This document shows, piece by piece, positions 31,148 to 61,744 of a stretch of DNA of 64,000 nucleotides. Within the stretch, counting starts at the first letter, position 1, and each line of letters opens with the position of its first letter. The notes beneath the pieces were generated by a model. That model was not told the DNA's origin, made no database searches, and saw only the letters and a program-made list of their open reading frames with translations. The stretch lies in assembly GCA_038206915.1 (NCBI GenBank), contig JBBRAI010000002.1, positions 5,510 to 69,509 on the forward strand, written 5' to 3'. The translations under genes and the position numbers were made by a program. The DNA is from Burkholderiales bacterium. GTDB taxonomy: Bacteria > Pseudomonadota > Gammaproteobacteria > Burkholderiales > SG8-39.

Positions 31148-31189
31148 TCGGTCTGCGATTCCGGCTGCCATCAATGGCGAATTGGATTC

Positions 31190-31388
31190 CCCGCAAATGC
31201 CGTCAGACCCGCATCCTCTGAACCTGCAGTCCAGAGTGGTCGCATTCCGGCCGCCGTAGGTACATCCACGATGGGACGCGCACAAAAGCGGCGCTTTGGT
31301 CCGCGACCTCAGCACATATATTGGTTCAAGGAATATATGGCCTTAACGAGCATCGCAGGGAAACTGTTTGCGGTCTGGCCCGCTAAGG
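31190..31388 (-). ncRNA. ssrS: probable 6S RNA
   Basis: It lies immediately downstream of zapA, the conserved proteobacterial synteny. It is about 190 nt with no ORF. It has E. coli 6S-like segments (GCGGGCCAG near the 5' end, CCTTGAACCAA, CTACGGCGGC near the 3' end). The 5' gccagaccgc can pair with the 3' gcgggtctgacggc as a closing stem. The ends are approximate. Confidence 0.55.
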
Positions 31389-35102: not shown

Positions 35103-35197
35103 GATTTTTTCTCCTCCTTTGTGGTTGCTGCGCTATGGTGTAATTGCTGCATGCGGAACCAGCGGAACCAGCGAGGTTGACAGCATCCCGCTACGCA

Positions 35198-35222
35198 ACT
35201 ACGATGATATATCAGTCGTAGT
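35198..35222. promoter_or_regulatory. operator-like palindrome ACTACGA-TGATATATCA-G-TCGTAGT in the TRAP/PhyH divergent region
   Basis: Read directly. The core TGATATATCA is at 35205-35214. A second half-site, caacATATCAc, is at 35228-35238. Confidence 0.55.
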
Positions 35223-35292
35223 CACGCAACATATCACCCGCGATTCTTTCATGCAAGCCGGTGGTGCTGGTCCCGTATAAGAGGAGCAAACA

Positions 35293-36126
35293 ATGTCGAA
35301 GTCGCTGTCCGTCGAAGCCGTGCGGCATTACCAGAGTAATGGCTATCATTTCCCGGTGCCGGTGCTCAGCCGGGAGGAGGCGGCGCATTATCGCCGCTGC
35401 CTGGAGCAGCACGAGGCCAAAACCGGCAAACCGCTGCAGGGCAATTGGCGGCACAAGACGCACCTTATCTTTACCTGGGCGGACGAGCTCGCGCACCATC
35501 CGAAGATTCTCGACGCCGTGGAGGATGTGATCGGCCCGGATATTCTCTGCTGGACCACAAATTTCTTCATTAAGGAAGCGAACAACCCCGGCTTTGTCTC
35601 TTGGCATCAGGACTCGACCTACTGGGGCCTCGATCCGGACGAAGTAATCACTGCATGGGTTGCCTTTACAGACGTGACGCCCGAAAACGGCTACATGCAG
35701 TTCATCCCCGGCAGCCACAAGATCGACCAGTTGCCGCACGTCGATACGTTTCACAAGGACAACCTGCTGTCTCGCGGGCAGGAGATTGCCGTTGAAGTGG
35801 ATAGGTCTAAAGCTGTCGGAATCCCGTTGCGCGCTGGGGAAATGTCGCTGCACCACATCAAGTTGGTGCACGGCTCCGAGGCAAACCGCAGCAACGACAG
35901 GCGCATCGGCCTCGCGATCCGCTACATTCCGACATATGTGCGCCAGACCAAGATTCGCGACTCGGCGATGCTGGTGCGCGGCACCGATAAGTATCGCCAT
36001 TTCGACTACGAACCGCGGCCCCGCGCCGACTTGGACGATGCGGCGCAGGCTGCACATGCCGATGCAGTGGCGCGCCAGGTAAAGGCGCTGTACCAAGGCA
36101 CCAACAAGCAGGAATTTCGCGCCTGA
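35293..36126 (+). CDS. phytanoyl-CoA dioxygenase (PhyH) family Fe(II)/2-oxoglutarate dioxygenase, copy 1
   Basis: The 277-aa ORF follows a GAGGAG RBS. It has the WHQDSTYW (H-x-D) motif, the distal His in LVHGSEAN, and RIGLAIRY. Confidence 0.8.
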   Translation: MSKSLSVEAVRHYQSNGYHFPVPVLSREEAAHYRRCLEQHEAKTGKPLQGNWRHKTHLIFTWADELAHHPKILDAVEDVIGPDILCWTTNFFIKEANNPGFVSWHQDSTYWGLDPDEVITAWVAFTDVTPENGYMQFIPGSHKIDQLPHVDTFHKDNLLSRGQEIAVEVDRSKAVGIPLRAGEMSLHHIKLVHGSEANRSNDRRIGLAIRYIPTYVRQTKIRDSAMLVRGTDKYRHFDYEPRPRADLDDAAQAAHADAVARQVKALYQGTNKQEFRA

Positions 36127-36199
36127 GTGTGCGCTCCGCACTGGCGCCTGCGGCGTCCGGGCGGCCGGCTACCCCGCTAATTTATCCGAAGGAGTCACC

Positions 36200-37063
36200 G
36201 TGGCTGAAGAACGCAAGAAACTGACGGTGCCCGATCTGAAGGAAGCGAAGAAATCCGGCCGTAAGCTTGCGATGGCCTCGATTCCGGACTACCCATCGGC
36301 AGTCTGGGCCGAGCGCGCCGGGCTGGATATCCTCGGCATCGGCGATAGTCTGGGCATGGTGAGCTATGGCTTCTCCAATACGCTGCCGGTGACGGTGGAC
36401 ATGATGATCCAGCATTGCCAGGCGGTGCGCCGTGGCGCGCCCAACACGTTCAATCTGGTGGCGATGCCGTACGGCAGCTATCCCAACCCGGACGTCGCCG
36501 TGACCAACGCGCTGCGTTTCATGAAGGAGGGCGACGTGGACTGCGTCAAGATCCAGGGCGGGCGCGACAAATTTCCCATCCTGAAGGCGATCGCCGACGC
36601 CGGCGTGCCGTTGATGAGTCACGTCGGCATGTGCCCGCATTTCGTGCACCAGTACGGCGGCTTCAAGCTGCAGGGCAAGACAGCGGATGAGGCGTTGAAA
36701 ATCATTGATGACGCCGTCGCGATCCAGGAAGCCGGCTGCATCGGTTTCGAAATCGAGGCGGTGCCGGCGCCGGTCGCGTGCGCGGTGGACGCAGCGGTAG
36801 ATATCTTCACCTTCGGCATCGGCGCCGGCAGCGCCAGCTGCGGTCAGCTGCTGCTCGCGTTCGATCTTCTGGGCGTGTTCGATCAGTTCAAGCCGAAATT
36901 CACCAAGCGCTATGCCAACATTTCGCAAATCGCCGTGGATGCCCTCAAGCAATACGCCGCCGAAGTGCGCAGCGGGCAGTTTCCGGACGCGGAACACAGC
37001 TACACAATGAAGCCGGAGGAGATCGCACGGTTGGAACAGGTCACCGGCCGGAAGCTGCAATAG
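36200..37063 (+). CDS. 3-methyl-2-oxobutanoate hydroxymethyltransferase (PanB) family protein, copy 1
   Basis: It has a GTG start after a GAAGGAG RBS. PanB motifs are present: IGDSLGMV, RRGAPN, VKIQGG, GHVGMCPH and FEIEAVP. The usual GIGAG..DGQIL reads GIGAGSASCGQLL here. Confidence 0.8.
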   Translation: MAEERKKLTVPDLKEAKKSGRKLAMASIPDYPSAVWAERAGLDILGIGDSLGMVSYGFSNTLPVTVDMMIQHCQAVRRGAPNTFNLVAMPYGSYPNPDVAVTNALRFMKEGDVDCVKIQGGRDKFPILKAIADAGVPLMSHVGMCPHFVHQYGGFKLQGKTADEALKIIDDAVAIQEAGCIGFEIEAVPAPVACAVDAAVDIFTFGIGAGSASCGQLLLAFDLLGVFDQFKPKFTKRYANISQIAVDALKQYAAEVRSGQFPDAEHSYTMKPEEIARLEQVTGRKLQ

Positions 37064-37090
37064 AAAACGGCGCGGGATCCGCGCCGTTTG
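37064..37090. terminator. bidirectional rho-independent terminator between the convergent PanB-like and SBP genes
   Basis: There is a perfect 11-bp stem, aaacggcgcgg/ccgcgccgttt, with loop gat. A/T tracts lie on both sides. Confidence 0.7.
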
Positions 37091-37109
37091 AGTCACCAGG
37101 CCAGGGAGA

Positions 37110-38420
37110 TCAGCCGTAGTAGCGTTTGGCGCGCTTTTCAGCTTCGGCCGCCGCTTCTTTCGCGGTCTTTTGCCCAATGCAGGCCGACGCAAACATGTCG
37201 ACCACGATCCAGTCGGCCATGCATGCCGCGGACGCATAACCCAGGCTGCCGGCATAGCTGTGCGGCTGCATGCGGGCGACAACATGCTTGAACGGCAGGT
37301 ATTTCGGGTCGTCGTTCCAGAATTTGTTGTCGTCGTAGGCCTTGAGCGGGTGGCTGACGTAGCCGAGCGACGCAGCCTGCCAGGGCTCGTACTGCTCGCG
37401 TTCCCACATGAAGCGCAGATACTCCTTCGCCGCATTCGGATACTTGCTGTACTTGAACAAGAACGCCTGCGACAGCAGATGAAGCTCGGTCGGCCTGCCG
37501 ATCGGCCCGACGATCATGGGCGCGTGGTTCATGTCGGCCGCCACCGCCTGCTTCGCCGGGTCGGTCGAAGTCTTCCCTGCGTAATAGATCGAGATGCCGT
37601 TCGAGGTGAGGCTGATCTTGCCTTCAAGGAAGGCGTTGTTGTTGGATACGCCGCTCCACCCGCCGGTGCCCTCGATGAAGGTCTTGGAAAGCTGCTGCAG
37701 ATACTCGATCGCTTTGATGGTTTCCGGGCTGTTGATCGCGACCTGATTCTTTTCGTCCACCATTTTGCCGCCGAAGCCCCAGAGGATGTTGTGCATCCAG
37801 GTTTCGGAATCACCGGTTGCATGTGACAAGGCGAAACCGGGCGGGTGACCGTTCTTTTGCAGCGCCTGACACAGCTTGAGATAGTCTTCAAAGTTAGTCG
37901 GAAATTTGTCGAATCCCGCCTCTTTCACCCAGGACACGCGGTAATTAAGCAAGGCTCCCGAGGCACCCAGCGGCAAGCCGATCCAGCGCCCGTTTTTGGT
38001 CGTGCCATAGACGCGCGCCGTCGGAAACCAGCCGCCGTATTTCTTGCCCAGGTACTCGGCGAGGTCGGTCAGATCGACCAGCTTATCCGGATAGAGATGC
38101 GGATCGTCGAGCCAGCCGACGATAATGTCGGGTCCCGCGCCGACGTTTGCGGCAACCGCCGCCTTGGGTCGCACATCTTCCCAGTTCTCGTTGTCCGTGC
38201 GCACCGGAATGCCGTATTTTTCGCTGAACTTCTTCGTGTTGGCCAACCACATATCCTCGTCAGGCTGCACGAATCGCTTCCAGCGCAGCACGCGTAGCTT
38301 GGCGTCTTTCTCCGGCTTGAAGCTGGTTTGCGCCTGCGCTTTCTTGACCCAGAACATCGGGCCCATCGCGGCCATGGCACCCATGCCGCCGACGATTCTC
38401 CGTCTAGTTTGGTTTGTCAT
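37110..38420 (-). CDS. ABC transporter substrate-binding protein (extracellular solute-binding family 1, CUT1 sugar-type; Tat-like signal)
   Basis: The 436-aa ORF follows an AAAGGAGG RBS. The N-terminus is MTNQTRRRIVGGMGAMAAMGPMFWVKKAQA. Confidence 0.8.
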   Translation of the reverse strand: MTNQTRRRIVGGMGAMAAMGPMFWVKKAQAQTSFKPEKDAKLRVLRWKRFVQPDEDMWLANTKKFSEKYGIPVRTDNENWEDVRPKAAVAANVGAGPDIIVGWLDDPHLYPDKLVDLTDLAEYLGKKYGGWFPTARVYGTTKNGRWIGLPLGASGALLNYRVSWVKEAGFDKFPTNFEDYLKLCQALQKNGHPPGFALSHATGDSETWMHNILWGFGGKMVDEKNQVAINSPETIKAIEYLQQLSKTFIEGTGGWSGVSNNNAFLEGKISLTSNGISIYYAGKTSTDPAKQAVAADMNHAPMIVGPIGRPTELHLLSQAFLFKYSKYPNAAKEYLRFMWEREQYEPWQAASLGYVSHPLKAYDDNKFWNDDPKYLPFKHVVARMQPHSYAGSLGYASAACMADWIVVDMFASACIGQKTAKEAAAEAEKRAKRYYG

Positions 38421-38447
38421 AACTACCTCCTTTGGTTGAACAGCGGG

Positions 38448-39326
38448 CTACCTGGCGACTTTGCTCATCTCAAAAAACCGCTTTTGCGAAGCGGTCTGGT
38501 TTTCGTAGATCGATCCCTGATTGAGTGCCGGTGGCAACGGCATGCGCGCCGGACAATCGACAAGGCGCGGAACGATGGTTTCTTCGCCGCAAAGCAGGCG
38601 CTCTTTGAAATCATCGTAGTCGGGGATTCCAAGCAATGGAAACGCGTCTGCCGCGCTAACCTCATACAGCAGAAGTCCGCGCGACCGGAGCGAAGTATTC
38701 TGCGCCGATCCATGCACTGTGCGCACGTGATGGAATGAGCACGATCCGGCCGCCCCGATGCAGGGAACGGCATCGGCGAAACGCAGGCCTGCGGCCTCGA
38801 AGTCCATGGCGCCGCAGAAGCGGCCATCGGTGCCGTGGTGGTCATAAGTTGGCCCTTTATGCGTGCCTGGAACGATATAGAGCGCGCCGTTCTCGACGGT
38901 GGTGTCGTCCAGCATTACGCCTACCGCAAGCAGATCGTCGTTGGTATGCGGATAAAACGCCCAGTCCTGGTGCCATTCGACCGGCGAACCGAAACCGGGC
39001 GCCTTAAGATTCAGCTTGGATCCGTGCAGGCGCACGCTCGCGCCGAGCAGATCGCGCAGGATTCCAAGCAGCTTGGGCGAGCGGGCGAATTCCGCAAATA
39101 TCGGATTCACCAGGTGCGGCGACTTGATGCGGCGTACGCGGGGTTCCGTGCTGCTATGGCCCGGTTCAAGGTCATACACCTTGTCGTGGGTCTTGACGGC
39201 GCGTGAACGTTCGACAAGCTCCGCGAGCACGCTCCTCATCTGCGTCCGGATGGCATCGTCAAGCACGCCTTCGACGACGATCGCCCCGACGTCGTTGTAT
39301 TCCTCGATTTGAGCCCTGGTCAGCAT
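38448..39326 (-). CDS. PhyH family Fe(II)/2-oxoglutarate dioxygenase, copy 2
   Basis: The 292-aa ORF follows a GGAGGA RBS. It has WHQDWAFYPH (H-x-D) and the distal His in RTVHGSAQN. Confidence 0.8.
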   Translation of the reverse strand: MLTRAQIEEYNDVGAIVVEGVLDDAIRTQMRSVLAELVERSRAVKTHDKVYDLEPGHSSTEPRVRRIKSPHLVNPIFAEFARSPKLLGILRDLLGASVRLHGSKLNLKAPGFGSPVEWHQDWAFYPHTNDDLLAVGVMLDDTTVENGALYIVPGTHKGPTYDHHGTDGRFCGAMDFEAAGLRFADAVPCIGAAGSCSFHHVRTVHGSAQNTSLRSRGLLLYEVSAADAFPLLGIPDYDDFKERLLCGEETIVPRLVDCPARMPLPPALNQGSIYENQTASQKRFFEMSKVAR

Positions 39327-39381
39327 ATTCTCAATTCCTCCGATGACGTTTGTCCAAAAGCGTACAGTGGCGCGTTCCGGC

Positions 39382-40284
39382 CTACTCCTTCACCGCGCCG
39401 GTCATGCCGGCAACGTAGTGTTCGACAAAAAACGAGTAAAGCAGGGCTACCGGCAGCGAGCCGAACAGGGCGCCCGCCATGAGCGAGCCCCAGTGGTAGA
39501 CGTCGCCGTCGACCAGCTCGGTGAGAACGCCCACCGGAATCGTCTTGTTCTCCGACGAGGAGATGAAGGTCAGCGCATAGATGAATTCGTTCCATGACAG
39601 GGTGAATGCGAATATCCCTGCCGAGATCAGTCCGGGGACCGCCAGCGGCAGCACGATTTTCGTCAGGATCTGCATGCGGGTCGCGCCGTCGACCAGCGCG
39701 CACTCCTCGAGTTCGAACGGAATCGACTTGAAATACCCCATCAACAGCCAGGTGCAGAACGGAATCAGAAAGGTCGGATAGGTCAGGATCAGCGCCCAGC
39801 GCGAATCAAACAGACCCAGTTTGTACACCATGGTCGCCAACGGAATGAAAAGAATCGAGGGCGGTACGAGGTAGGCGCCATAGATGCTCAGTCCAACCCA
39901 GCGGCTGCCTTTGAAGCGCAAACGCTCGATTGCGTAGGCGGCGAGCACGCTGGCAAAAAGGGAAATCACGGTGGCGGTTCCGGACACCAAAAAGGTGTTC
40001 CATAGCCAGTCCGGGTACGAGGTCTCGAACAGCAGCTTCTTGATATTGTGCAGCGTGGGATTGAATACCCAGAACGGGTTGTTCTTTGCGTAGTCGTAGA
40101 TATCGTCGTTGCTCTTGAAAGTAGTGATCACCATCCAGTAGAAAGGAAAAAGCAGGACGAACGTGAAAACCATCAGCGGCAGGTAGACAGTCACGAATTT
40201 GCGTTGCCGCGTCAACAGGAAATCCATTCCACCTTCGGAATGCAGCTTTTCCTCGGACCCCGGGGTAGTGAGCGCTTGTGTCAT
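39382..40284 (-). CDS. carbohydrate-type ABC transporter permease (MalG-like)
   Basis: The 300-aa polytopic protein has the EAA loop ECALVDGATRMQILTKIVLPLAVPG. Confidence 0.85.
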   Translation of the reverse strand: MTQALTTPGSEEKLHSEGGMDFLLTRQRKFVTVYLPLMVFTFVLLFPFYWMVITTFKSNDDIYDYAKNNPFWVFNPTLHNIKKLLFETSYPDWLWNTFLVSGTATVISLFASVLAAYAIERLRFKGSRWVGLSIYGAYLVPPSILFIPLATMVYKLGLFDSRWALILTYPTFLIPFCTWLLMGYFKSIPFELEECALVDGATRMQILTKIVLPLAVPGLISAGIFAFTLSWNEFIYALTFISSSENKTIPVGVLTELVDGDVYHWGSLMAGALFGSLPVALLYSFFVEHYVAGMTGAVKE

Positions 40285-40288
40285 CGGT

Positions 40289-41224
40289 TCAATCCTTGCT
40301 TCCCTGCTGCCAGGCGCGACGTTGCAGCCCGAAAAAGCTGATCAGAATAGCGGCGACCAGGAACGGGACCATCGCTATCGCGATTGCCGCGCCCTCCGCC
40401 ATCTGTCCGCCCGGAATGGCGCGCTGAAACGACAATGTCGCCATCAGGTGCGTGGCGTTCACCGGGCCGCCGCGCGTGATTGCGTAGACGAGTTGAAAAT
40501 CGGTGAAAGTGAACAGCACCGAGAACGTCATCACGATCGCGATGATCGGTGTAAGCAAGGGGTAGGTAATGTGCCGGAATCGCTGCCATTGCGTCGCGCC
40601 GTCTATGGTCGCCGCTTCGTAGAGCGACGGAGAAATCGTCTGCAAGCCGGCAAGAAGGGAAATCGCAACGAACGGGATGCCGCGCCAAATATTGGCGACG
40701 ACGACGGAAATGCGCGCATTCCAGGGGGTGCCGAGAAAATCGATGTAGTGATCGATCAGCCCGGCCTTAATCAGCACCCAGGAGATGATCGAGAACTGGC
40801 TGTCGTACATCCACCAGAACGCGATCGCGGAAAGTGTCGTGGGCACGATCCAGGGCAGCAGCAGCACGGCGCGCATGAATGACTTGAACGCAATGTTTTG
40901 GTTGAGCAGCAACGCGAGTACCAGGCCAAGAAAAAACTTGAACACGCTCGCGACGGCAGTGTAGCCGACGGTGTTGTACACTGACAGCCAGAATACGCTG
41001 TCCTGAAACAGCGACTCGTAGTTTGCCAGTCCGATAAAAACACCCGGCCGCCCGATCTTGGTGTCGGTCAGCCCGAGCCAAAAGCCGAGGCCGAGGGGAT
41101 AGGTCAGGAACACCAGCAGAATCGCCGCTGCCGGCAGCATAAATATGAACCCCAGCGCGTCGGCGCTGTTATTGATGCGGTCCAGCAGGCTCTTGCGCGA
41201 TGACCTTGCCAAGGGCTTCTCCAA
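40289..41224 (-). CDS. carbohydrate-type ABC transporter permease (MalF-like)
   Basis: The 311-aa polytopic protein has the EAA loop EAATIDGATQWQRFRHITYPLLTP. Confidence 0.85.
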   Translation of the reverse strand: MEKPLARSSRKSLLDRINNSADALGFIFMLPAAAILLVFLTYPLGLGFWLGLTDTKIGRPGVFIGLANYESLFQDSVFWLSVYNTVGYTAVASVFKFFLGLVLALLLNQNIAFKSFMRAVLLLPWIVPTTLSAIAFWWMYDSQFSIISWVLIKAGLIDHYIDFLGTPWNARISVVVANIWRGIPFVAISLLAGLQTISPSLYEAATIDGATQWQRFRHITYPLLTPIIAIVMTFSVLFTFTDFQLVYAITRGGPVNATHLMATLSFQRAIPGGQMAEGAAIAIAMVPFLVAAILISFFGLQRRAWQQGSKD

Positions 41225-41330
41225 ATTTGGATCGAGCTAAGTCGGACAAAGTGCGGGCGTCAACCATTACAGAGCGCGCGCTGGATATCGACCGATGCGA
41301 GGTGGCCAGTTTAGACCTTATTCACCCATA

Positions 41331-43262
41331 TCATGCATGACTGGTCGCCGACGCGGCAAGCAGCCGCTTCACCAGCGCAACCGTTTCCGGCGCGCTGGGG
41401 GCAAAGCCGTCGGCGCCTATCTGGCGCGCGTATTCCGCGGTAATCGCGGCGCCGCCGACAATGACTTTGCAGTGTGCACGCAGATTGCGTTGGTCCAGAG
41501 CCTTGATGACTTCGCGCATTTCGACCATGGTCGTGGTTACCAGCGCGGACAGGCCGAGGACGTCGGGTTTGAATTCGACGATCTGGTCGCAAAACTTTTC
41601 GCGCGCTACATTGATGCCCAGGTCGCGCACCTCGAAGCCCACGCCTCGGAGCAGCGTCACCACCAGATTCTTGCCGATGTCGTGCATGTCGCCTTTGACC
41701 GTCCCGATCAGCACCCTGCCGCTTTGGGACTCGCCGCCCGCGGCCAGCAGCGGTTCCAGCACCTCCACCGCCGCGGTCATGGCGCGGGCCGCAAGCAGCA
41801 CTTCGGGGATGAATGCCTCGCCCGTCTCCATGCGCCTGCCGACGGCGCTTATCGCGTCGATAAGCCCCTGCTCGAGGATTGCCTTGGCCTTGATGCCCCG
41901 GTCGAGCAGGGCCTGCACATGGGCCTTGATGTCCTTGTGCTTGCCTTTGGTCACGTCCAGGCGCACTTGCGCGAAGATGTCGTCTGCATGGTTTTGCGCC
42001 GCCGCCGGACCGGACTGTGCCGCCGCGGCAGGCGCCGGCGCGGGACGATGCGCGCTAGCGGCGAGTGGCAGGCGGCCTTCGCGTTCGACGCGCTCGCCGA
42101 TACGCTGCAGGCGGGAGAATACGGCGTCGGGCGGAACCTGGTCGGCAATGCCCACCAGCATGCGCCTGCCCGGCGCCACGGCTTTGAACAGCTGATCCAT
42201 GTAGGCTTCGAAGTCGGCGTCGCTGGTCTGTGGCAGCACGATGGTCGAGGGAATGCCGCCGCACAGGGTCAGATGGCCGCTCCAGCGCCGGTAGTATTCT
42301 GCGAGGGAGATCTTGGTCATCGGCGCCGGACAGATGGACTCCGCGATATGCATGCCTGAGTCGCGGATCAGGTCCATCAATCCTTCGTTCTCGCCGTCCG
42401 TATGGCCCATGACCAGTTTGCCCGCCGCGCCCAGCTCGCGCGAGGCCTTGCGGATCCACGGCGTAATCTCCTGTTCGAAGTACGGCGCATAGGTCAGCAT
42501 GTCATCGTAATTGGCACCCCACCACACCACTTCCGCCGGGGATTTGCACAGGATCTGCAGCATCTTGTCGAACAGGTGCTCCATCTTGCCTGCCAGTTCG
42601 CGCATCTTCGCGTTGTGATCCTTGTAGTGGAAGTAGAACTGCGTCGGATCGAGCAGGTCGCGCTGGATCTGGTGAATCGGCGAGGCTCCCATGAAGCCCT
42701 GCGCCACGGCGACACCATCGTCGCGCATCTCCTCGCGCACCCAGCGCTCGAAGCGCTCGAAGTTGGGCACGATGCCCATATGTTCATAAATGTAGCCCGC
42801 CGGAGCATAGTCTTCCGGCGACTTGATCAGATGGTCGACGATCATCGGGCTGGTGATGCCCAGGCGCTGCGAGGATTCGTCATAGAACATGGTCGAATTG
42901 ACCATGCCGAGCGGTGTGTGATACTCGACGCGGATGTGGCCGCTGTCGTGCCGCACCTTTATTTCCACGTCACGCGGCATCACGAAGTCGTACAGCGTAT
43001 CGCGCGTGCTGAACAGGCCGATGCCGCGATGCAGGTAATCCTTCTGCGACTCCGGATCGAGTATGTTGTCGGCAAATCGAAAATACACGGTCCAGCCTTC
43101 GGCGCGCGCAATCTCGTTCTGCGTGCGGCCGGCGTGCTGCTTGGGCAGGGTGCCGGATGTCGAGTTGGCGAGATACCAAAGGTCAAGCCGCGGTACGTAG
43201 GGCAGGCGATCGACTTCCTCTCCGCGGAATGCGGCAAGCATGCGGCTCTTGTGCGTATACAT
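41331..43262 (-). CDS. fusion protein: URO-D/MtaA-like methyltransferase domain + B12-binding (corrinoid) domain (CmuA-like architecture), copy 1
   Basis: The 643-aa ORF follows an AGGAG RBS. The N-terminal ~400 aa resembles the uroporphyrinogen-decarboxylase family (LPYVPRLDLWY..., ...GGIPSTIVL..., ...VGIADQVPPDAVF). An Ala/Pro linker follows, then a helical cap and a Rossmann B12 domain with GDMHDIGKN (D-x-H-x-x-G), SALVTTT and VGGAA. Confidence 0.8.
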   Translation of the reverse strand: MYTHKSRMLAAFRGEEVDRLPYVPRLDLWYLANSTSGTLPKQHAGRTQNEIARAEGWTVYFRFADNILDPESQKDYLHRGIGLFSTRDTLYDFVMPRDVEIKVRHDSGHIRVEYHTPLGMVNSTMFYDESSQRLGITSPMIVDHLIKSPEDYAPAGYIYEHMGIVPNFERFERWVREEMRDDGVAVAQGFMGASPIHQIQRDLLDPTQFYFHYKDHNAKMRELAGKMEHLFDKMLQILCKSPAEVVWWGANYDDMLTYAPYFEQEITPWIRKASRELGAAGKLVMGHTDGENEGLMDLIRDSGMHIAESICPAPMTKISLAEYYRRWSGHLTLCGGIPSTIVLPQTSDADFEAYMDQLFKAVAPGRRMLVGIADQVPPDAVFSRLQRIGERVEREGRLPLAASAHRPAPAPAAAAQSGPAAAQNHADDIFAQVRLDVTKGKHKDIKAHVQALLDRGIKAKAILEQGLIDAISAVGRRMETGEAFIPEVLLAARAMTAAVEVLEPLLAAGGESQSGRVLIGTVKGDMHDIGKNLVVTLLRGVGFEVRDLGINVAREKFCDQIVEFKPDVLGLSALVTTTMVEMREVIKALDQRNLRAHCKVIVGGAAITAEYARQIGADGFAPSAPETVALVKRLLAASATSHA

Positions 43263-43331
43263 GGGTTCTTGCTCCTGGACTAACGCCGATTTGGCGGTGT
43301 GGCTCTTCTACGTGCGGTTCGTAATGTGGCG

Positions 43332-44252: not shown

Positions 44253-44280
44253 GGTGCGCTCCTTTGTTACAGCTAAAACG

Positions 44281-47551: not shown

Positions 47552-47555
47552 GGAA

Positions 47556-48734
47556 TTAATTTGGTTCGATGTGGGTCACGGTGATCGCGCCACCTTTCTT
47601 CATATGCAGGATGTCGAAGTCGAATACCGCCTCGCCGGTCTTGTCATAGCGGATATTCCAGACGCCATGATACGTAAACGACATCAGCGCCTGCTTGACC
47701 TTGGCTACGTCCTCGACCGTGCCCGCCTTCTTCATTGCGTCGACCAGCATATACACGTGGTCATAGCAGGACGAAGAGCAAAGCGGTGCCTGATCGTACG
47801 GGAAATCACGTTTATAAAACGCCTTGTATGCTTCGATAAATGCCTTGGTCTTCGGTTCGGTCTTCTCGGCCTGCTCGAAATACTTCGGCAGGTAGGCGAT
47901 ATAGTCGTCGATCAGGTCTTTGTTCTTCAGGGCAGGCCCCATCGACCCGCGTACCGTGAAGAATTTCTTGAACAAGCCCGTCTCCGTCGCTTGACGCACG
48001 ATATCGTAGAGCACGGCGTCGACATAACCTGGAAACAGATACTCGGGCTTGTTGGCCGCGAGCTTGGCGAGCGGGGCGGAGAAGTCCTTGGTGCCGGGCT
48101 CGAACATCTCCACCTGCAGGTCGATGCCTGCGGCCTTGAAGATAGGCGCATAAATGTCCACCGCTACCTTGCCGAAGGCGTCGTTCTGGAACAGCATCGC
48201 CGCCTTCTTTACGCCCTGCTTCTTGAGGTAATTGACCATCAACTGACCGAAGCCATCGGATCCCGCGTCCCAGTTCCAGGTGCGCAGGAGGTACTCGTGA
48301 TCGGGTGTGCCAAGCTTCGCATGGATGGCGGTGGCGCCGCCCATCAGCAGGAACTTGCCGTTGTTCTGCGTCAGATAGGGCTCGATGCCGTTGAATACGT
48401 TGGTGAGAAACGGACCGAATATGTACTTGACCTTGTCCTGCTCCAGCAGCTGCTTGGCTATGATCTGCGCTTCCTGCGGATTTGCGCGCGTGTCAGGCGA
48501 GATCAGTTCGAGCTTGTAGGTTTTGGCACCTACCTTGAAGCCGCCGGACTTGTTGATTTCTTCAACCGCCAGCTTCGCCCCCTGGCTGCCCATCCAGCCG
48601 TAGGTGGCGAGCGTGCCGGTCTGCGCTTCGATCTGCCCCAGTTTAACGATGTCCTGCGCTGCGGCTGGCGCCGCAGTGCACGCGGCCAGCAAAGTTGCGG
48701 CCGCGCACATTTTCAACAGATTGCCTGCATTCAT
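47556..48734 (-). CDS. ABC transporter substrate-binding protein (Leu/Ile/Val-binding / amide-urea family fold)
   Basis: The 392-aa ORF follows a GGAGGAG RBS and has a signal peptide ending AAAQ. It is the first gene of a Liv-type operon. Confidence 0.8.
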   Translation of the reverse strand: MNAGNLLKMCAAATLLAACTAAPAAAQDIVKLGQIEAQTGTLATYGWMGSQGAKLAVEEINKSGGFKVGAKTYKLELISPDTRANPQEAQIIAKQLLEQDKVKYIFGPFLTNVFNGIEPYLTQNNGKFLLMGGATAIHAKLGTPDHEYLLRTWNWDAGSDGFGQLMVNYLKKQGVKKAAMLFQNDAFGKVAVDIYAPIFKAAGIDLQVEMFEPGTKDFSAPLAKLAANKPEYLFPGYVDAVLYDIVRQATETGLFKKFFTVRGSMGPALKNKDLIDDYIAYLPKYFEQAEKTEPKTKAFIEAYKAFYKRDFPYDQAPLCSSSCYDHVYMLVDAMKKAGTVEDVAKVKQALMSFTYHGVWNIRYDKTGEAVFDFDILHMKKGGAITVTHIEPN

Positions 48735-48825
48735 GATCTCTCTCCTCCTGTGGATTGAACCAACTTCGTGCTAGTCCGGCGCCGTGCAACGCGTGAAATT
48801 TGACCGTCGGACTGGTGATATATCA

Positions 48826-48883
48826 TTAGTATGTTTGTAACATGCTACTTGAGCGCCAGCGGCGAATCAAGCTGCGCGTTCCG
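48826..48883 (-). promoter_or_regulatory. sigma70-like promoter plus downstream TGATATATCA operator for the Liv-type importer operon
   Basis: On the minus strand TTGATT (48865-48870) is followed by 17 nt, then TAGCAT (48842-48847), then the palindrome TGATATATCA (48826-48835). The upstream block ATCAAGCTGCGCGTTCCG (48866-48883) is duplicated at 51850-51867. Confidence 0.55.
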
Positions 48884-48914
48884 TCAGCGGTATTGGCTGT
48901 TTTCGGGACGGTCG

Positions 48915-50825
48915 TCAGCTAGCCATCAGCCGCTTGGCCAACTCAACCGCTTCGCCTGCATCGCCGGCATAACCGTCGGCCCCTATGTCATGCGCGAATT
49001 TTTCGTTCACCGCGGCGCCGCCGACGATGATTTTTACCCCGTCACGCAGCCCCGCATTCGTCAGCGCCTTGATCACCTTGCCCATTTCCGTCATGGTCGT
49101 TGTCAGCAGCGCGGACAGTCCGACGATGTCGGGTTTGTACTCGGCTACTGCTTTGACGAACGCCTCGGCCGACAGGTTGATCCCCAGATCCTTCACCTCG
49201 AAGCCGACTCCGCGCAGCATGGTGACCACCATGTTCTTGCCAATATCGTGAAAATCGCCTCTCACGGTGCCTACGAGCGCCCTTCCCGTGACCTCGCGCT
49301 TGGCCGCGGCCAGATGCGGTTCGAGCACCTTCAACCCCTCGCTCATGGCCCGGGCGGACAGCAGCACCTGCGGAATGAACAGCTCGCCGGCGCCGAACTT
49401 CACGCCTATCGCCTGCATGGTCTCGAGCATGCCGTGATCGAGAATCTGCTTGGCGCTCAAGCCCCGATCCAGCAGCGCCTGTACATGCGCGCCGATTTCC
49501 TTGTGCCGGCCCTTGCGCACGTCTTCGCGTACGCTTTCGTAGTCCTGCGCCTCTGCGGGCGGGAGCGTCAGCCGAATCTTGACTTCCTCAAGGTGCGCCG
49601 CGGAGAGCGGCCGGGCTGAGCCGGCTTGAAGCGGCAGCCGCGCCTCCTTTTCCGCGCGCTCGCCGATGCGGATCAAACGCTCGAAGACTGCGTTGGGCGG
49701 CGTGGTGTCGGCGATGCCGAGGATGAAGCGCCTGCCCGGGGCTATGACTTTGAACAGATGATCCAGATAGGCTTCGAACTCCTCCCCGGTCGCGGATTCG
49801 GCCAGCACCATGTTCGAGGGAATGCCGCCGAAGATCGTCAGTTTTTCACCCCATCGCTGGTAGTACTCCTCGATCTTCACCTTGGTCATGGGATAGGGGC
49901 ATATCGCCTCGGCGACATGCATGCCGGAATCTCGAATCAGGTCCATCAGCCCGAAATTCTCGCCGTCGCAATGCACCAGCGACACCTTGCCTTTCTCCCC
50001 CAAGGTGTCGGAGGCCTTGCGGATCCAGGGCGTGATCTCCTTTTCGAAGTACTCCGGGTAGGTAATCATGTCGTCGACGTTGGCGCCCCACAGCACCAGC
50101 TCGGCCGGGGAATCGGCGATGATCTTCAAGCCCTGTTCGAAAAAGTGCGACACGCTGTCGGCCAGTGTGCGCATCTCCTTTTGGTAGTCGTTGTAGTGGT
50201 AGTAAAAGTCGGTCGCGTCCACGAACTCCTTCTGGATGTGATGCATGGGGGAGCACGCCAGGCCGATCATGGTGCCGGGGACACCGTCCTCGCCGACGTA
50301 TTGCTGCCAGGCGCGAAAGCGCTCGAAGCTGGGAACGAGCGTGAGATTCTCGAACAGGTAGCCGACGACCTTGTAGTCTTCCGGCCGTTTGATCACGTGC
50401 TCTTCGATCCAGGTGATCGAAGCGCCGGCGCGGCGCATTTCGTCCGAATACATGGTTTTGGTGCTCACGCTGCCTACCGGCGTGTGGTACAGCACCGTGG
50501 TGTAATCGCCCTGTCTTTTCACCTCGATATCGATTGTGGGTGAAAATTTTAAGTCGAATACCATTTCCTTCAGGCAGTACAGACCCAGTGCGCGATGCAG
50601 CATGTCATCGGGTTTGTCCACCTTGAGGAATTCCGGCACGATTTTGTGCAGCGCCCATCCTTGGGCGCGCGAAATCTCGTCCTGGGTGCGGCCCTTGTGC
50701 TGCTTCGGCAAGGTATCGAAGGCGACATTGGCGTTGTACCAAAGATCGATTCTGGGAACATAGGGAAGCGTGTCCGGCATCTCTCCCTTCAGCGCCGCCA
50801 GGATTCTTTGTTTGTGGGTTGGCAC
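48915..50825 (-). CDS. fusion protein: URO-D/MtaA-like methyltransferase domain + B12-binding domain (CmuA-like architecture), copy 2
   Basis: ORF 48915..50960 trimmed to the in-frame GTG at 50825, preceded by GGAGGAG 5 nt upstream. This aligns VPTHKQRILAALKGEMPDTLPYVPRIDLWY with the N-terminus of copy 1. The B12 motifs are GDFHDIGKN, SALLTTT and VGGAA. Confidence 0.8.
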   Translation of the reverse strand: MPTHKQRILAALKGEMPDTLPYVPRIDLWYNANVAFDTLPKQHKGRTQDEISRAQGWALHKIVPEFLKVDKPDDMLHRALGLYCLKEMVFDLKFSPTIDIEVKRQGDYTTVLYHTPVGSVSTKTMYSDEMRRAGASITWIEEHVIKRPEDYKVVGYLFENLTLVPSFERFRAWQQYVGEDGVPGTMIGLACSPMHHIQKEFVDATDFYYHYNDYQKEMRTLADSVSHFFEQGLKIIADSPAELVLWGANVDDMITYPEYFEKEITPWIRKASDTLGEKGKVSLVHCDGENFGLMDLIRDSGMHVAEAICPYPMTKVKIEEYYQRWGEKLTIFGGIPSNMVLAESATGEEFEAYLDHLFKVIAPGRRFILGIADTTPPNAVFERLIRIGERAEKEARLPLQAGSARPLSAAHLEEVKIRLTLPPAEAQDYESVREDVRKGRHKEIGAHVQALLDRGLSAKQILDHGMLETMQAIGVKFGAGELFIPQVLLSARAMSEGLKVLEPHLAAAKREVTGRALVGTVRGDFHDIGKNMVVTMLRGVGFEVKDLGINLSAEAFVKAVAEYKPDIVGLSALLTTTMTEMGKVIKALTNAGLRDGVKIIVGGAAVNEKFAHDIGADGYAGDAGEAVELAKRLMAS

Positions 50826-50900
50826 GCGTTCTCCTCCGTGGCGGCCGAAGTTAGCTGTCCGGGAATCGGTCCGGCCCCTCGGCATCGCCTCCATGCCGCC

Positions 50901-50947
50901 TAACATATCAGTAATATATGAGCTGGCGGTTTGATCCAGATCAAAGC
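50901..50947 (-). promoter_or_regulatory. 47-nt conserved regulatory block upstream of fusion copy 2 (paralogous to 54481-54527)
   Basis: On the minus strand it reads gcTTTGATCTGGATCAAAccgccagCTCATATATTACTGATATgtta. By my hand alignment 39 of 47 positions are identical to the block upstream of the corrinoid-protein operon. Confidence 0.6.
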
Positions 50948-50994
50948 GATCACAGATCATCGGCCGCAGCGCGGCCGGCTATTGCCGGCTGGAT

Positions 50995-51759
50995 TCAGGC
51001 AGGCTGCCGGGTGAATGGCTTCAGCGCGTGTTTCGCGATCGTCTGCTTGAGTTCGGGCTTGATATGCTTCTCGCTGTAGCCGTTGAATACGTGTCCGAGC
51101 AGGCCGCGGTCCAGATCGCTGGTGCCCATGATCCAGTCGGCGATGGGAAACGTCAGGTTCATGTTGATGTCCATCATGATGCCCTGATTGTGATGCGCCG
51201 TATGGTGGCGGCGGATGGTGTTGACGAACGGCATATTTTGCACGAACCAGTTCTCATGCACGTGGCAGCAGTAGTGGAAGGTTTCGTAAATCAGATACTG
51301 GCCAACCATCGTAACCAGCAGGATGTAGCCCGCATTAGGGTTGATCAGCCAGCCGAGCAGCAGCGCGAATGGCATGCCCAGGCCGATAAACGTGAATAAC
51401 GCGCGCCACGGGAAGAAAATAATGCGGAACTCCCGGGTCGAATCCACGGTCATCTCGCCGTCGGTGAAGTACTGGTGGTGTTGGCGGGTGTGGCGGTCGT
51501 AGATGGCGCGCAGCGCCCACACGTCGCGCAGCCGGTGCATGACGTATTTGTGTATCCACCATTCGAAAATATTCGAGAAACAGAATACCGGCACCACCAG
51601 CAGCCATTCCCATCCTGAATCGTGCAGGCGCGATATGCACCAGGCGATCGTCGCGATGCCGGTGGAGTACATCACGCCGATGTGAACCAAACCGTTGTAA
51701 AGAGGATGGATCTGTGCAGTGTATTCTTCGCGGAACTTGCGCTGTCGCTCTGTCATCAT
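50995..51759 (-). CDS. fatty acid hydroxylase / sterol desaturase superfamily membrane di-iron oxygenase
   Basis: The 254-aa protein has TM segments and three His boxes: HKYVMH, HTRQHH and HHTAHH. A GGAGGA RBS precedes it. Confidence 0.8.
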   Translation of the reverse strand: MMTERQRKFREEYTAQIHPLYNGLVHIGVMYSTGIATIAWCISRLHDSGWEWLLVVPVFCFSNIFEWWIHKYVMHRLRDVWALRAIYDRHTRQHHQYFTDGEMTVDSTREFRIIFFPWRALFTFIGLGMPFALLLGWLINPNAGYILLVTMVGQYLIYETFHYCCHVHENWFVQNMPFVNTIRRHHTAHHNQGIMMDINMNLTFPIADWIMGTSDLDRGLLGHVFNGYSEKHIKPELKQTIAKHALKPFTRQPA

Positions 51760-51801
51760 GGGCAGTCCTCCACGTAATGAAGCCTGCGGCGGCTTCGGAC
51801 A

Positions 51802-51867
51802 CGTGATATATCACGCGTATATCTTATGCTACGCGCGCCGCCGGCTTTTATCAAGCTGCGCGTTCCG
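51802..51867 (-). promoter_or_regulatory. sigma70-like promoter plus downstream CGTGATATATCACG operator for the hydroxylase gene
   Basis: On the minus strand TTGATA (51849-51854) is followed by 17 nt, then TAGCAT (51826-51831), then a perfect 14-bp palindrome (51802-51815). The geometry matches that at 48826-48883. Confidence 0.55.
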
Positions 51868-52053
51868 GTAGCCGCCGCGCCGGAGCGGCGCCCAGGCCGG
51901 CGCCGTCGAGGTGTTCTGGCACGCGTTTGTCGATGATCACGGATTCCGGCTTCATATGCTCCCCGTTAAAATTCGCCAAACTACCGCCATATGCCGTTCC
52001 GACCAGTGCGGAACGTATCCGGGGCCGGAGAGGGTCCGGGGCGGCATTCTTGG

Positions 52054-52749
52054 TCAGAAGTCGATGGTCACCGTCCCCCGCGTAAACTTGGCCACGGCGT
52101 CCAGCAGTTTGTCCATCGCTTTGGCCGCGGCGGACTCGTTGCCCGAGCCGATACTACGCGAGAGGTTGGCATGCAGCTTGGCGGTGAGTGGCAAGTCCGC
52201 CGCCTGCTTGTAATGAATGTACCAGAAGCGCCGCGACAGAGAGTGCATCAGGCCCATAGCGCCGGAGGCAAATTCGTTGCGCGCCGCGATCACCGAAAGT
52301 TCATTGAATTCGCGATCCACCCGCATGAACGTAACATCGTTGTTGGTCTTGGCGCTCGCTTCGAATTGGCGCGCGAGCGCGAGGAAGCGTTCGCGCTCCT
52401 CGGGCGTCGCGCGCCGTGCCGCGCTCCTCGCCACCAGGCGCTCTACTTCGCGCCGCACCTCAAGCAGCCTCAACTGGCTCTTCACATTGATCTCGGAAAC
52501 GATGATTCCCCGCCGCGGCAGTATATTGACCAGGCGCTCGCGTGCGAGACGTTGCAGTGCCTCGCGTATGGGCGTGCGCCCGATCCCGAGACGTTGCGAC
52601 AGGGCGGTCTCGGACACGGTGCTGCCCGGTGGCAACTTCAGCGTGACGATCATTTCCTCAAGAATGCCGTAGGCGCGTTCGGTCAGCGAAATATCCGCTT
52701 CGGATGCGACTTTTTCCGGCTTTCTGACGGTGGTTTTTTGTGGTTTCAC
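52054..52749 (-). CDS. GntR family transcriptional regulator (FadR/FCD subfamily)
   Basis: The N-terminal winged HTH reads ETALSQRLGIGRTPIREALQRLARERLV, and the C-terminal domain is all-helical. The GTG start overlaps the PanB-like stop (GTGA). Confidence 0.85.
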   Translation of the reverse strand: MKPQKTTVRKPEKVASEADISLTERAYGILEEMIVTLKLPPGSTVSETALSQRLGIGRTPIREALQRLARERLVNILPRRGIIVSEINVKSQLRLLEVRREVERLVARSAARRATPEERERFLALARQFEASAKTNNDVTFMRVDREFNELSVIAARNEFASGAMGLMHSLSRRFWYIHYKQAADLPLTAKLHANLSRSIGSGNESAAAKAMDKLLDAVAKFTRGTVTIDF

Positions 52750-53627
52750 TGGTGCTTGCGTTTTTCGACGAGGTTGAGAAATTTTTCGTACTCCTTCTCG
52801 TCCACGCCATAGCTGTGATCGTCGTCCGGGAAGGTGCCGGCTTTTACGTCGGCGATGTAGGCCTTGATGCCGTTCACCGCGACCTCGGTCAGATTGGCAT
52901 AGCGCTTGGTGAACTTCGGCTTGAAGTCGGTGAATACGCCGAGCAGATCATGGCAAAGCAGGATCTGGCCATCGGTACCGGCGCCAGCGCCTATGCCTAT
53001 GGTCGGGATTTCGAGCTGCTTCGATATCACCGCGGCGATCTTCGCCGGCACCGCTTCAAATTCGAGCATGAAGCAGCCCGCATCCTGAATCGCGAGCGCG
53101 TCGCCGAGTATCTTCATCGCCGCTTCCGCGCTGCGTCCCTGGATGCGGAAGCCGCCGAACATAGCGATGGTGTGCGGCGTGAGGCCGATGTGCGAGGCGG
53201 TCGGAATACCGGCATCTACCAGCGCTTTGAGTATGTGCGCCTGAGATTTTCCGCCCTGCGGCTTTACCGCGTCGCTGCCGGCATCCTGCATGAAGCGCGT
53301 TGCGTTGAGCAGGGCGCGATCGATCGTGTTATAGCTCTGGTAGGGCATGCAGCCCAGTACGAAGGTGGCGGGCGCGCCACGGCGGATGGCCGCCGCGTGC
53401 ATCACCATCATGTCCATGGTGGCGGGAATCGTGCTCGAATGTCCATGCGCGATCATCGCCAGGCTGTCCCCGACCACGGCAACGTCGACGCCCGCGGTTT
53501 CGGCCCATTTGGCCGCCGTATAATCGGGCACCGACATGTAGACCATCTTCTCACCGCTGTTCTTGGATTCGCGTATTTCCTGGATGGTCCGCTTTTTGCG
53601 TTCCGTGCCTGGGCTTGCCTGGGCCAA
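52746..53627 (-). CDS. 3-methyl-2-oxobutanoate hydroxymethyltransferase (PanB) family protein, copy 2
   Basis: ORF 52746..53717 trimmed to the TTG at 53627, which has an AAGGAG RBS 6 nt upstream. PanB motifs are present: VGDSLAM, RRGAP, VKPQGG, SHIGLTPH, LEFEAVP and GIGAGAGTDGQILL. Confidence 0.8.
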   Translation of the reverse strand: MAQASPGTERKKRTIQEIRESKNSGEKMVYMSVPDYTAAKWAETAGVDVAVVGDSLAMIAHGHSSTIPATMDMMVMHAAAIRRGAPATFVLGCMPYQSYNTIDRALLNATRFMQDAGSDAVKPQGGKSQAHILKALVDAGIPTASHIGLTPHTIAMFGGFRIQGRSAEAAMKILGDALAIQDAGCFMLEFEAVPAKIAAVISKQLEIPTIGIGAGAGTDGQILLCHDLLGVFTDFKPKFTKRYANLTEVAVNGIKAYIADVKAGTFPDDDHSYGVDEKEYEKFLNLVEKRKHQ

Positions 53628-53647
53628 ATTGGACTCCTTGTCGTGTG

Positions 53648-53672
53648 ACTGATATGCGTGCAGTATATCAGT
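53648..53672. promoter_or_regulatory. inverted repeat ACTGATAT-N9-ATATCAGT in the PanB2/Fe-S-protein divergent region
   Basis: Read directly. The arms are 8 bp and perfect. The repeat lies 21 nt upstream of the PanB2 start. Confidence 0.55.
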
Positions 53673-53762
53673 TGTGTTTTCAGCAGTGTAATGCGCACCG
53701 GGCGACAAGTGTGCCACCTTACAGGTGTCCTGGCGCGTGCCGCTGCAGGCGCGGAGCAGGCA

Positions 53763-54476
53763 ATGAACTTAAGCGATGTAGAGGCGAGTCTGGCGCAGGC
53801 CGGACTCAGTTCGCGCGGTGCATTTCATCCGGTCGCGCGCGATGGCGTACCGCTTTTCGCTCCGGGCGTCGCGGCGCGCACAGTGGTGCTTGCCGGCAAT
53901 GCGGGGCCGCGCATGTGGCGCCGCTTCGCCGGCGTCCGTGCCGCGCGCGGGATCTCCCTGGACGCATGGTCGGAAACCGTCCTGAACGGTCTCGCTGAGC
54001 AACTCGGTGCGGCGGCCGCGTACCCGTTCAAGCGTCCCTACCTCCCGTTCCAGCGCTGGGCCAGGCGCGCGCAAGCCTGCCATGGGTCGCCCTTGGGGCT
54101 GCTGATCCACCCGGACTACGGCGTGTGGCACGGCTATCGCGGGGCGCTGTTGTTCGCGCAGGAACTGAAGTTGCCCGAACCCGATCGCCGCCCGAGTCCC
54201 TGCGCAAGCTGCGCGGAGCGACCCTGCATGTCGGCATGTCCGGTCGGCGCATTTTCCGACATGCGCTACGACGTTCCCGCCTGCGCGCGCTACCTGGCGG
54301 CTACGCCGGAACCTGCGTGCATGGAGATCGGCTGCCTCGCGCGCCATGCCTGTCCGGTCGGGCGCGACTACCGCTATGCGCCGGAGCAGGCGCGGTTCCA
54401 CATGCTGTCGTTCCGGCGCAACCATCAGCCCGGCGCAGCTGCGGCACAAAACCAGGGGGCGAAGCGCCCTGTGTAA
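53763..54476 (+). CDS. 4Fe-4S cluster protein resembling the C-terminal part of epoxyqueuosine reductase (QueG) / reductive-dehalogenase-type enzymes
   Basis: ORF 53658..54476 trimmed to MNLSDVE. The segment GLLIHPDYGVWHGYRGALLF...PCASCAERPCMSACPVGAF matches the QueG-like pattern and has a C-x2-C-x..-C-x3-C-P ferredoxin motif. A further Cys cluster follows (CARYL...CMEIGCLARHACPVG). Confidence 0.5.
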   Translation: MNLSDVEASLAQAGLSSRGAFHPVARDGVPLFAPGVAARTVVLAGNAGPRMWRRFAGVRAARGISLDAWSETVLNGLAEQLGAAAAYPFKRPYLPFQRWARRAQACHGSPLGLLIHPDYGVWHGYRGALLFAQELKLPEPDRRPSPCASCAERPCMSACPVGAFSDMRYDVPACARYLAATPEPACMEIGCLARHACPVGRDYRYAPEQARFHMLSFRRNHQPGAAAAQNQGAKRPV

Positions 54477-54480
54477 CGCC

Positions 54481-54527
54481 GGTTTGATTCAGATCAAATC
54501 GGCCGCTCATATATTACTGATATATTA
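54481..54527 (+). promoter_or_regulatory. 47-nt conserved regulatory block upstream of the corrinoid-protein operon
   Basis: It reads ggTTTGATTCAGATCAAAtcggccgCTCATATATTACTGATATatta. The palindrome is TTTGAT-N4-ATCAAA, followed by an ACTGATAT half-site. It ends 50 nt before the ATG at 54577. Confidence 0.6.
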
Positions 54528-54576
54528 CATGCAATCCGACTTGAACCGCGGGCTCAACCGAGAGGGAGACAGGCAG

Positions 54577-61648: not shown

Positions 61649-61744
61649 TCGGCGCGCTCGGATGCTTTGCCGCGAAGGTTACGAAATACCTCGAGACTGA
61701 GGCTACCCGTTTGCTTCGCAACGGTGTAAGATCGCGCTACTCGT

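Follow-up and report, generated by a model that had tools for sequence, protein, structure and literature searches.

Regulators of the FadR subfamily of GntR proteins recognise operators with a consensus of TKGT and ACMA boxes, in which the GT and the AC lie 2-3 nucleotides (nt) apart, with NanR (direct repeats TGGTATAW) and BioR (TTATMKATAA) listed as exceptions; weaker extra boxes are found 7-12 nt from the palindrome centre in 13 groups of the subfamily (PMC4494728). Here we describe a putative regulon in a 64,000-nt stretch of DNA from a Burkholderiales bacterium (contig JBBRAI010000002.1 of assembly GCA_038206915.1, positions 5,510 to 69,509 of the forward strand; hereafter the window), where six AT-rich boxes precede the transcription units of one catabolic gene cluster. 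We hold with good confidence that these boxes are the operators of the GntR/FCD regulator encoded in the cluster, an explanation that as a whole comprises a repression-release mechanism and a co-requirement for an FNR-like activator.

The locus resembles those of FadR, PdhR, LldR, GlcC, DgoR and the GT-N2-AC group (GntR, HypR, UxuR) in that the regulator combines a GntR winged helix-turn-helix with an FCD domain and its gene lies inside the cluster that it would control, and it shares with local FCD repressors an AT-rich palindrome at promoters that include the regulator's own. The design itself, a local GntR repressor with a palindromic operator, is ordinary and of a known kind, while the motif and the regulon were not found described in the searchable literature. 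A literature search returned nothing relevant on the 10-mer or 8-mer motif and no paper combining PanB, PhyH and GntR, and the motif does not figure in the accessible part of the site tables of PMC4494728.

Six related boxes in the cluster

Read directly, the window contains all six AT-rich boxes that an earlier note on this DNA had proposed as related intergenic sites. Four of its positions stand as given, and two had to be moved, from 48826-48835 to 48816-48825 (off by 10) and from 50906 to 50905. The sites and the gene of the proposed binder are as follows.

35198..35226, minus strand: site 1, in the divergent TRAP (dctPQM) / PhyH1-PanB1 promoter region; perfect core TGATATATCA with arms ACTACGA / TCGTAGT
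48814..48837, minus strand: site 2, 5' of the Liv-type importer and the long minus-strand gene array behind it; CAAACATACTAATGATATATCACC, core at 48816-48825
50899..50922, minus strand: site 3, 5' of fusion 2 (URO-D-like domain plus B12-binding domain); CTCATATATTACTGATATGTTAGG
51802..51825, minus strand: site 4, 5' of the membrane His-box (FA_hydroxylase) gene; AAGATATACGCGTGATATATCACG, core at 51804-51813
52054..52749, minus strand: GntR-family regulator gene with FCD domain (231 amino acids), second gene of the panB2-gntR operon; proposed binder
53648..53672, no strand assigned: site 5, spaced form ACTGATAT-N9-ATATCAGT in the divergent panB2-gntR / iron-sulfur (Fe-S) protein promoter region; candidate autoregulatory site
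54506..54529, plus strand: site 6, 5' of the corrinoid-protein operon; CTCATATATTACTGATATATTACA

Exact TGATATATCA is present at three window positions: at 35205-35214, enclosed by a 25-nt near-palindrome (35198-35222), at 48816-48825, and at 51804-51813, where it is enclosed by a perfect CGTGATATATCACG at 51802-51815. Site 3 carries ATATCAGT at 50905-50912, site 5 the two 8-mers spaced by nine nucleotides, and site 6 ACTGATAT at 54516-54523, which overlaps or forms part of TGATATATTA at 54518-54527. Sites 3 and 6 share a 47-nt duplicated block.

All six sites are intergenic once three over-long open reading frames (ORFs) are trimmed to likely starts, near 50825-50840 for fusion 2, probably the TTG at 53618 with AAGGAG in front for PanB2, and probably the ATG at 53763 for the Fe-S protein. 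The earlier note's statement that each site precedes a transcription unit agrees with the distances to the start codons, which are 30-103 nt for all six, site 5 lying 30 nt upstream of the panB2-gntR operon. Together the sites cover every transcription unit of the cluster, namely TRAP and, divergently, PhyH1-PanB1; the Liv array and the genes behind it; fusion 2; the hydroxylase; panB2-gntR and, divergently, the Fe-S protein; and the corrinoid operon.

Two additional elements lie beside these sites. A second near-perfect 21-nt palindrome, TAGTATGTT-TGT-AACATGCTA (48828-48848), overlaps the left box of site 2 at the Liv importer; it might serve as an additional site for this regulator or for a different one. 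In the TRAP/PhyH1 region, an extra half-site ATATCA (35231-35236; region 35227-35236) follows CGCAAC, the same hexamer as before site 1 (35194-35199), and may represent a second weak box.

Rarity in the home genome

The home genome comprises 3.96 Mb at 64% GC. Exact TGATATATCA occurs in it four times, with three copies inside 17 kb of this cluster, and five of the 30 genomic 8-mers ACTGATAT/ATATCAGT are located in the cluster. Matches to the motif with at most one mismatch number four in the window against 0.42 expected, a count reached in just one of 100 shuffles. The fourth genomic 10-mer (C46:26101) was considered as an operator and taken as a chance occurrence: its score is 10 bits, it sits at the AT-rich end of a contig, and genes of the cluster are lacking around it.

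For an independent ranking, a 24-nt matrix (consensus cTGATATACnnCTGATATATCAGn) was built solely from foreign upstream regions, those of hydroxylase and PanB2 orthologues, with the window left out. The genome-wide matrix search that the earlier note had called for places five of its six sites among the six top distinct places of the genome:

Rank 1: site 6, 34.0 bits
Rank 2: site 3, 31.5 bits
Rank 3: contig 4, position 115087, 29.1 bits
Rank 4: site 2, 27.9 bits
Rank 5: site 4, 27.3 bits
Rank 6: site 5, 21.6 bits (20.9 on the other strand)
All remaining places of the genome: under 20 bits

The note's observation that the motif is lacking in the housekeeping half of the window holds as well, the best score there being 12 bits versus 21-34 for five of the six sites. 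It had also envisaged that the motif might occur at similar frequency throughout the genome, coding DNA included; the motif is instead rare and concentrated in the cluster, and not a single site falls inside the conserved genes of the 79 orthologous loci described below.

The rank-3 place lies outside the window (C4:115077-115265). Behind its TTGATATACTAGCCGTATATTAGA comes an ORF of 29 codons, MWPTKRKPAIAREERTIQEIRDSKRITAQ*, similar to the PanB2 N-terminus, and the whole appears to be what is left of a duplicated panB2 promoter with the start of the gene. Another site, weaker at 19.9 bits, is found 150 nt beyond it.

Conservation in orthologous loci

Searching with the regulator yielded 79 loci (1.27 Mb) with orthologues 50-83% identical, originating from uncultured Burkholderiales and other Betaproteobacteria as well as from Alphaproteobacteria, e.g. 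Bradyrhizobium, Afipia, Tistlia and Azospirillum; cultured strains with an orthologue include Afipia broomeae ATCC 49717, Tistlia consotensis USBA 355 and Bradyrhizobium lablabi. The window proteins, mapped onto these loci, delineate a conserved core of PanB2, GntR, the His-box hydroxylase, a TRAP or Liv importer and PhyH3, to which a methyltransferase-corrinoid fusion or a corrinoid operon is added in some loci. At a matrix threshold of at least 18 bits, 141 sites were found in 68 of the 79 loci, versus none in the reversed sequences of the same loci. These sites precede orthologues of the hydroxylase, PanB2, Fus1, CorP, PhyH1/TRAP, PhyH3, LivJ and gntR, and thus include positions outside the training of the matrix, i.e., those 5' of PhyH3, LivJ, TRAP and gntR itself.

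The hydroxylase gives the most complete picture: almost all upstream regions of its orthologues carry ctAATAGATtggTGATATATCAga, ttAGATATAcgccTGATATATCAg or tgatcgacaacTAATATATCAgc, and each of the 64 tested orthologues belongs to a unit preceded by a site (64/64; the exact core in locus L037). Upstream of PanB2 orthologues the motif takes the form GATAT-N9-ATATC, the same as at site 5, and scores at least 20 bits in 28 of 36 regions. The orthologous PhyH1/TRAP regions contain cgACATACGTGTGATATGTTAG at 23-28 bits, the LivJ orthologues of two loci (L012, L057) have related sites, the promoters of five Fus1 orthologues (L010, L020, L023, L026, L014) show the same box as site 3, and the CorP orthologues of L014 and L023 are preceded by sites of 27-29 bits. 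The motif has the same sequence in Alpha- and Betaproteobacteria but varies in how far it lies from the genes and in its orientation to them.

Operator architecture and comparison with described operators

The operator turned out to be longer than first read. It spans ∼22-24 nt, is asymmetric and has the consensus cTGATATAC-nn-CTGATATATCAG, in which a palindrome of 10-12 base pairs (bp), (C)TGATATATCA(G), has its half-site repeated in weaker form, as T-R-A-T-A-K-A-Y, at a distance of exactly 11 bp upstream, on the same helix face. To examine this layout, regions upstream of the hydroxylase genes were aligned in gene orientation, with the symmetric core T[GA]ATAT[AG]T[CT]A as the sole anchor. 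In the 51 anchored sites, the 16 nt upstream of the core hold 10.3 bits of information versus 2.8 bits in the 16 nt downstream, and the upstream signal T-R-A-T-A-K-A-Y occupies positions -11 to -4 relative to the core, one helical turn away. The common form is therefore best read as three half-sites (direct, direct, inverted), the last two of which overlap as the palindrome; at sites 3 and 6 it appears as two tandem 11-mers (CTCATATATTA CTGATATATTA).

A second form, TGATAT-N9-ATATCA, is found at the panB2-gntR promoter; it retains the outer box and the inverted half-site and lacks the one in the middle. This difference between the autoregulatory form and that of the enzyme promoters is conserved in Beta- and Alphaproteobacteria, and the missing middle half-site may cause the regulator to bind its own promoter with a different affinity. 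The same absence (GATAT-N9-ATATC) was observed 5' of PanB2 in loci L001, L003, L019, L030, L035, L040, L062 and L071, the enzyme promoters having three half-sites.

Compared with the 10-bp form T-K-G-T-N2-A-C-M-A of the subfamily, the core TGAT-AT-ATCA agrees at eight of ten positions, and the box 11 bp upstream corresponds to the extra half-sites noted in other groups. The closest layout is that of BioR, the alphaproteobacterial biotin repressor, a FadR-subfamily protein whose 10-bp AT-rich operator, likewise without GT/AC, shares the arrangement T-x-A-T-(2 nt)-A-T-x-A with TGATATATCA; yet letters 2 and 9 are G and C here and T and A in BioR, so that the BioR-type operator is not reproduced, and the regulon here contains no biotin genes, the likeness being one of operator layout. 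NanR also repeats its half-site in direct orientation, but its operators consist of direct repeats only, whereas the present operator joins a palindrome to a single phased direct repeat, and a spaced inverted form occurs at the autoregulatory site.

Positions equivalent to FadR Arg35 and Thr47 have been linked to operator letters (PMC4494728). In our own alignment with FadR, the Arg35 equivalent is T, Q, A or S and never Arg, and the Thr47 equivalent is an invariant Pro. We attempted to map the core onto the published amino-acid/base correlations and make no base-specific claim, since positions 6 and 14 of that study most likely refer to the K and M letters and not to the G and C of GT/AC. Co-variation of residue 48 (aligned with FadR Arg35) with operator letters 14, 19 and 21 in 62 loci showed no pattern, which is neutral to the assignment of the regulator.

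The GntR/FCD regulator

The regulator displays both domains expected of an FCD-type GntR protein, the GntR winged helix-turn-helix (PF00392, E 3.7e-16, residues 22-84) and the all-helical C-terminal FCD domain (PF07729, E 9.4e-19, residues 95-217), and its closest solved chains are uncharacterised GntR/FCD proteins (7u5q, 4e-16; 3ihu). It has no second homologue in the home genome at a tblastn E of 1e-5 or below, the regulator itself being the only match. Across 84 orthologues neither the recognition helix GRTPIREALQRLA nor the wing PRRG varies, which fits the constancy of the motif across two bacterial classes.

In relatives the motif is found next to the regulator gene. Orthologues (E 1e-80 or better) were called in six of 30 related genomes, giving seven with the home genome, and of the 16 exact 10-mers in these, at least 12 share a contig with gntR and are no further than 20 kb away from it, often within 100 bp. 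All exact 10-mers of the genome are on the gntR contig in four of them (G004, G005, G013, G021), at 73 bp to 16 kb from the gene, and one of two in G007, G014 being too fragmented to tell. An operator stands at the regulator's own operon, both here (site 5) and upstream of PanB2 orthologues, and in loci that lack panB2 (e.g. L033, L041, L063) sites are found directly 5' of gntR. The earlier note's proposal, in which a common operator marks out a regulon and the encoded GntR/FadR-type protein is its probable binder, is thereby supported computationally, by the rarity of the motif, its presence in 68 of 79 loci, the linkage to the regulator, the domains of the latter and its status as single homologue.

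Some loci encode a second, paralogous GntR (42-63% identical; L009:3659-4279, L014:18868-19545, L057:2399-2938, L078:16698-17249), which adjoins the PhyH1/TRAP module (as in L009), the Liv importer or the corrinoid operon (as in L014), with the same operator type around it. In the home genome one protein apparently serves all modules.

Promoter context and mode of action

At PhyH1, a promoter-like TTGACA-17-TACGAT ends at 35205, where the core of site 1 begins; at the hydroxylase, a promoter-like TTGATA-17-TAGCAT (51854-51826) ends one base before the 24-mer of site 4; and in several orthologues TTGACA-17-TAATAT overlaps the site. The operators thus probably overlap the -10/+1 regions, and such positions, over or just after -10/+1, make repression at all six units likely.

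Class II FNR-dependent promoters carry TTGAT-N4-ATCAA centred near -41.5. Two perfect boxes of this kind are found in the cluster:

50931..50944, no strand assigned: FNR/CRP-type box TTGATCCAGATCAA, 5' of fusion 2; centre 32 nt upstream (minus strand) of the site 3 core centre
54484..54497, no strand assigned: FNR/CRP-type box TTGATTCAGATCAA, 5' of the corrinoid operon; centre 32 nt upstream of the site 6 core centre

Both read TTGAT-N4-ATCAA without deviation, and TTGAT-N4-(A/G)TCAA boxes are kept 5' of Fus1 orthologues in seven loci (L008, L010, L014, L018, L020, L026, L036). They occur only at promoters of corrinoid enzymes and not at those of the hydroxylase or PhyH, and the genome has 16 Crp/Fnr-family helix-turn-helix matches above the cut-off. 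If centred at -41.5, the boxes would put the -10 hexamers inside the operator, TATGTT at fusion 2 and TATATT (54521-54526, site 6) at the corrinoid operon. The box sequence is that of class II FNR promoters; unlike there, a repressor operator would be superimposed here on the presumed -10.

In the mechanism that we propose, the effector-free regulator would bind as a dimer, or as two cooperating dimers, and block RNA polymerase at all six transcription units, including panB2-gntR, until a small acid, either the substrate or an intermediate of the pathway, releases it. The two corrinoid methyltransferase promoters would probably need an FNR-like activator, i.e., low oxygen, in addition to relief of repression. 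While the form of the operator rests on sequence and comparison, this mechanism is one that we infer.

Some FadR-family proteins activate transcription, as E. coli FadR does at fabA, and the regulator could bind the sites and yet act as an activator or dual regulator at some promoters. The geometry also varies, with an operator ∼50 nt from the centre of the FNR box in L010 versus 32 nt here. We nevertheless consider this unlikely, if the least so of the alternatives, as the sites overlap or directly follow the best -10 candidates, at 30-103 nt from the start codons, and repression relieved by an effector is the usual mode of action of local FCD regulators in catabolic clusters (PMC4494728).

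Identity of the binder and nature of the sites

The operator might also be real and bound by a transcription factor encoded elsewhere, the GntR gene merely travelling with the cluster. The GntR gene served to gather the loci, and it is always accompanied there by the catabolic genes; because of this way of collecting the loci, co-occurrence cannot separate the regulator from the cluster; moreover, the core misfits the usual GT/AC consensus of the subfamily. Against this speaks that GntR is the sole regulator gene common to the loci, with sites right at its own operon, that the 10-mers of the relatives cluster at 20 kb or less from gntR, and that operators of the GntR family typically have a weaker box beside the palindrome. 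We thus regard a binder encoded elsewhere as improbable, and slightly more so than activation by the cluster's own regulator.

It is far less probable that no dedicated factor is involved and that the boxes are AT-rich promoter elements (-10-like TATAAT variants), alike through promoter duplication together with paralogous genes. The duplicated block shared by sites 3 and 6 and the TATAT strings in the boxes, which resemble -10 hexamers, would be compatible with such an origin, but the conserved letters are the non-promoter flanks C-TGATAT...ATCA-G plus a second box in 11-bp phase, their sequence is kept across Alpha- and Betaproteobacteria while distance and orientation vary, and ordinary promoters of the genome lack the motif. 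Finally, we rejected the reading of the palindromes as RNA hairpins (attenuators or processing sites) acting in the transcript, which we find scarcely credible: although sites 1, 4 and 5 fold better than shuffles (z -2.7 to -3.0) and site 4 is flagged as terminator-like, sites 2 and 6 are essentially unfolded (0 and -1.4 kcal/mol), the conserved upstream box is a direct repeat and not a pairing partner, and no Rfam family matches at the sites.

Several observations weigh against the assignment of the six boxes to the cluster's GntR/FCD regulator as repressor. The core TGAT-AT-ATCA has A and T in place of the G and C of GT/AC, in the window as well as in all 51 anchored hydroxylase sites. Site 1 scores only 9.0 bits despite its perfect core, because its left box is one base out of register. 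Fifteen exact 10-mers (0-3 each) are present in 23 related genomes without a detected orthologue of the regulator, the reversed-pattern control giving eight in 31 genomes. The matrix was trained on loci chosen via the regulator, so that the link between motif and regulator is partly confounded with that between motif and cluster, and the operator exists in two forms, with and without the middle half-site. The promoter hexamers and FNR boxes are consensus matches only, and the sequencing runs holding this stretch are DNA metagenomes, with no RNA runs among them.

Other features near the cluster

A cobalamin riboswitch (Rfam RF00174, 93.8 bits) is located at 61731-61944 of the window (plus strand), directly 5' of a TonB-dependent receptor gene that follows the corrinoid operon; riboswitch and receptor probably represent B12 uptake beside the B12-dependent enzymes. 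Just beyond the cluster, at 31184-31364 (minus strand), there is a gene for 6S RNA (Rfam RF00013, 61.8 bits).

Implications for the pathway and for the FadR subfamily

Taken further, and only tentatively, the operator and its regulator might represent an undescribed specificity class of FCD-type GntR proteins, in which the GT/AC contact has changed to AT/AT and the operator consists of three half-sites (direct, direct, inverted) in 11-bp phase. As parts of the same tentative reading, the regulon, which would extend through soil and freshwater Beta- and Alphaproteobacteria, might control an undescribed route of one-carbon removal that involves a PanB-like enzyme, a membrane His-box hydroxylase, PhyH dioxygenases and, in some lineages, corrinoid methyltransferases, and an FNR-type oxygen signal might cross the switch only at the oxygen-sensitive corrinoid genes, so that the cell would pick the oxygen-dependent or the corrinoid-dependent branch. 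The TRAP or Liv importer suggests a small carboxylate or an amino acid as the compound.

The shared operator marks the six units, spread over 20 kb, as one functional unit of a poorly understood breakdown pathway, which comprises three importers, three PhyH dioxygenases, two PanB paralogues, a membrane hydroxylase, two methyltransferase-corrinoid fusions and a corrinoid/folate operon, and whose conserved core in ∼70 other bacteria consists of PanB2, GntR, the hydroxylase, PhyH3 and an importer. For the FadR subfamily, the motif constitutes a well-supported exception to the GT/AC rule. The operator moreover offers a simple means of finding more members of the pathway in any genome, and the regulator a route to the pathway's substrate, via the molecule that releases it from DNA.

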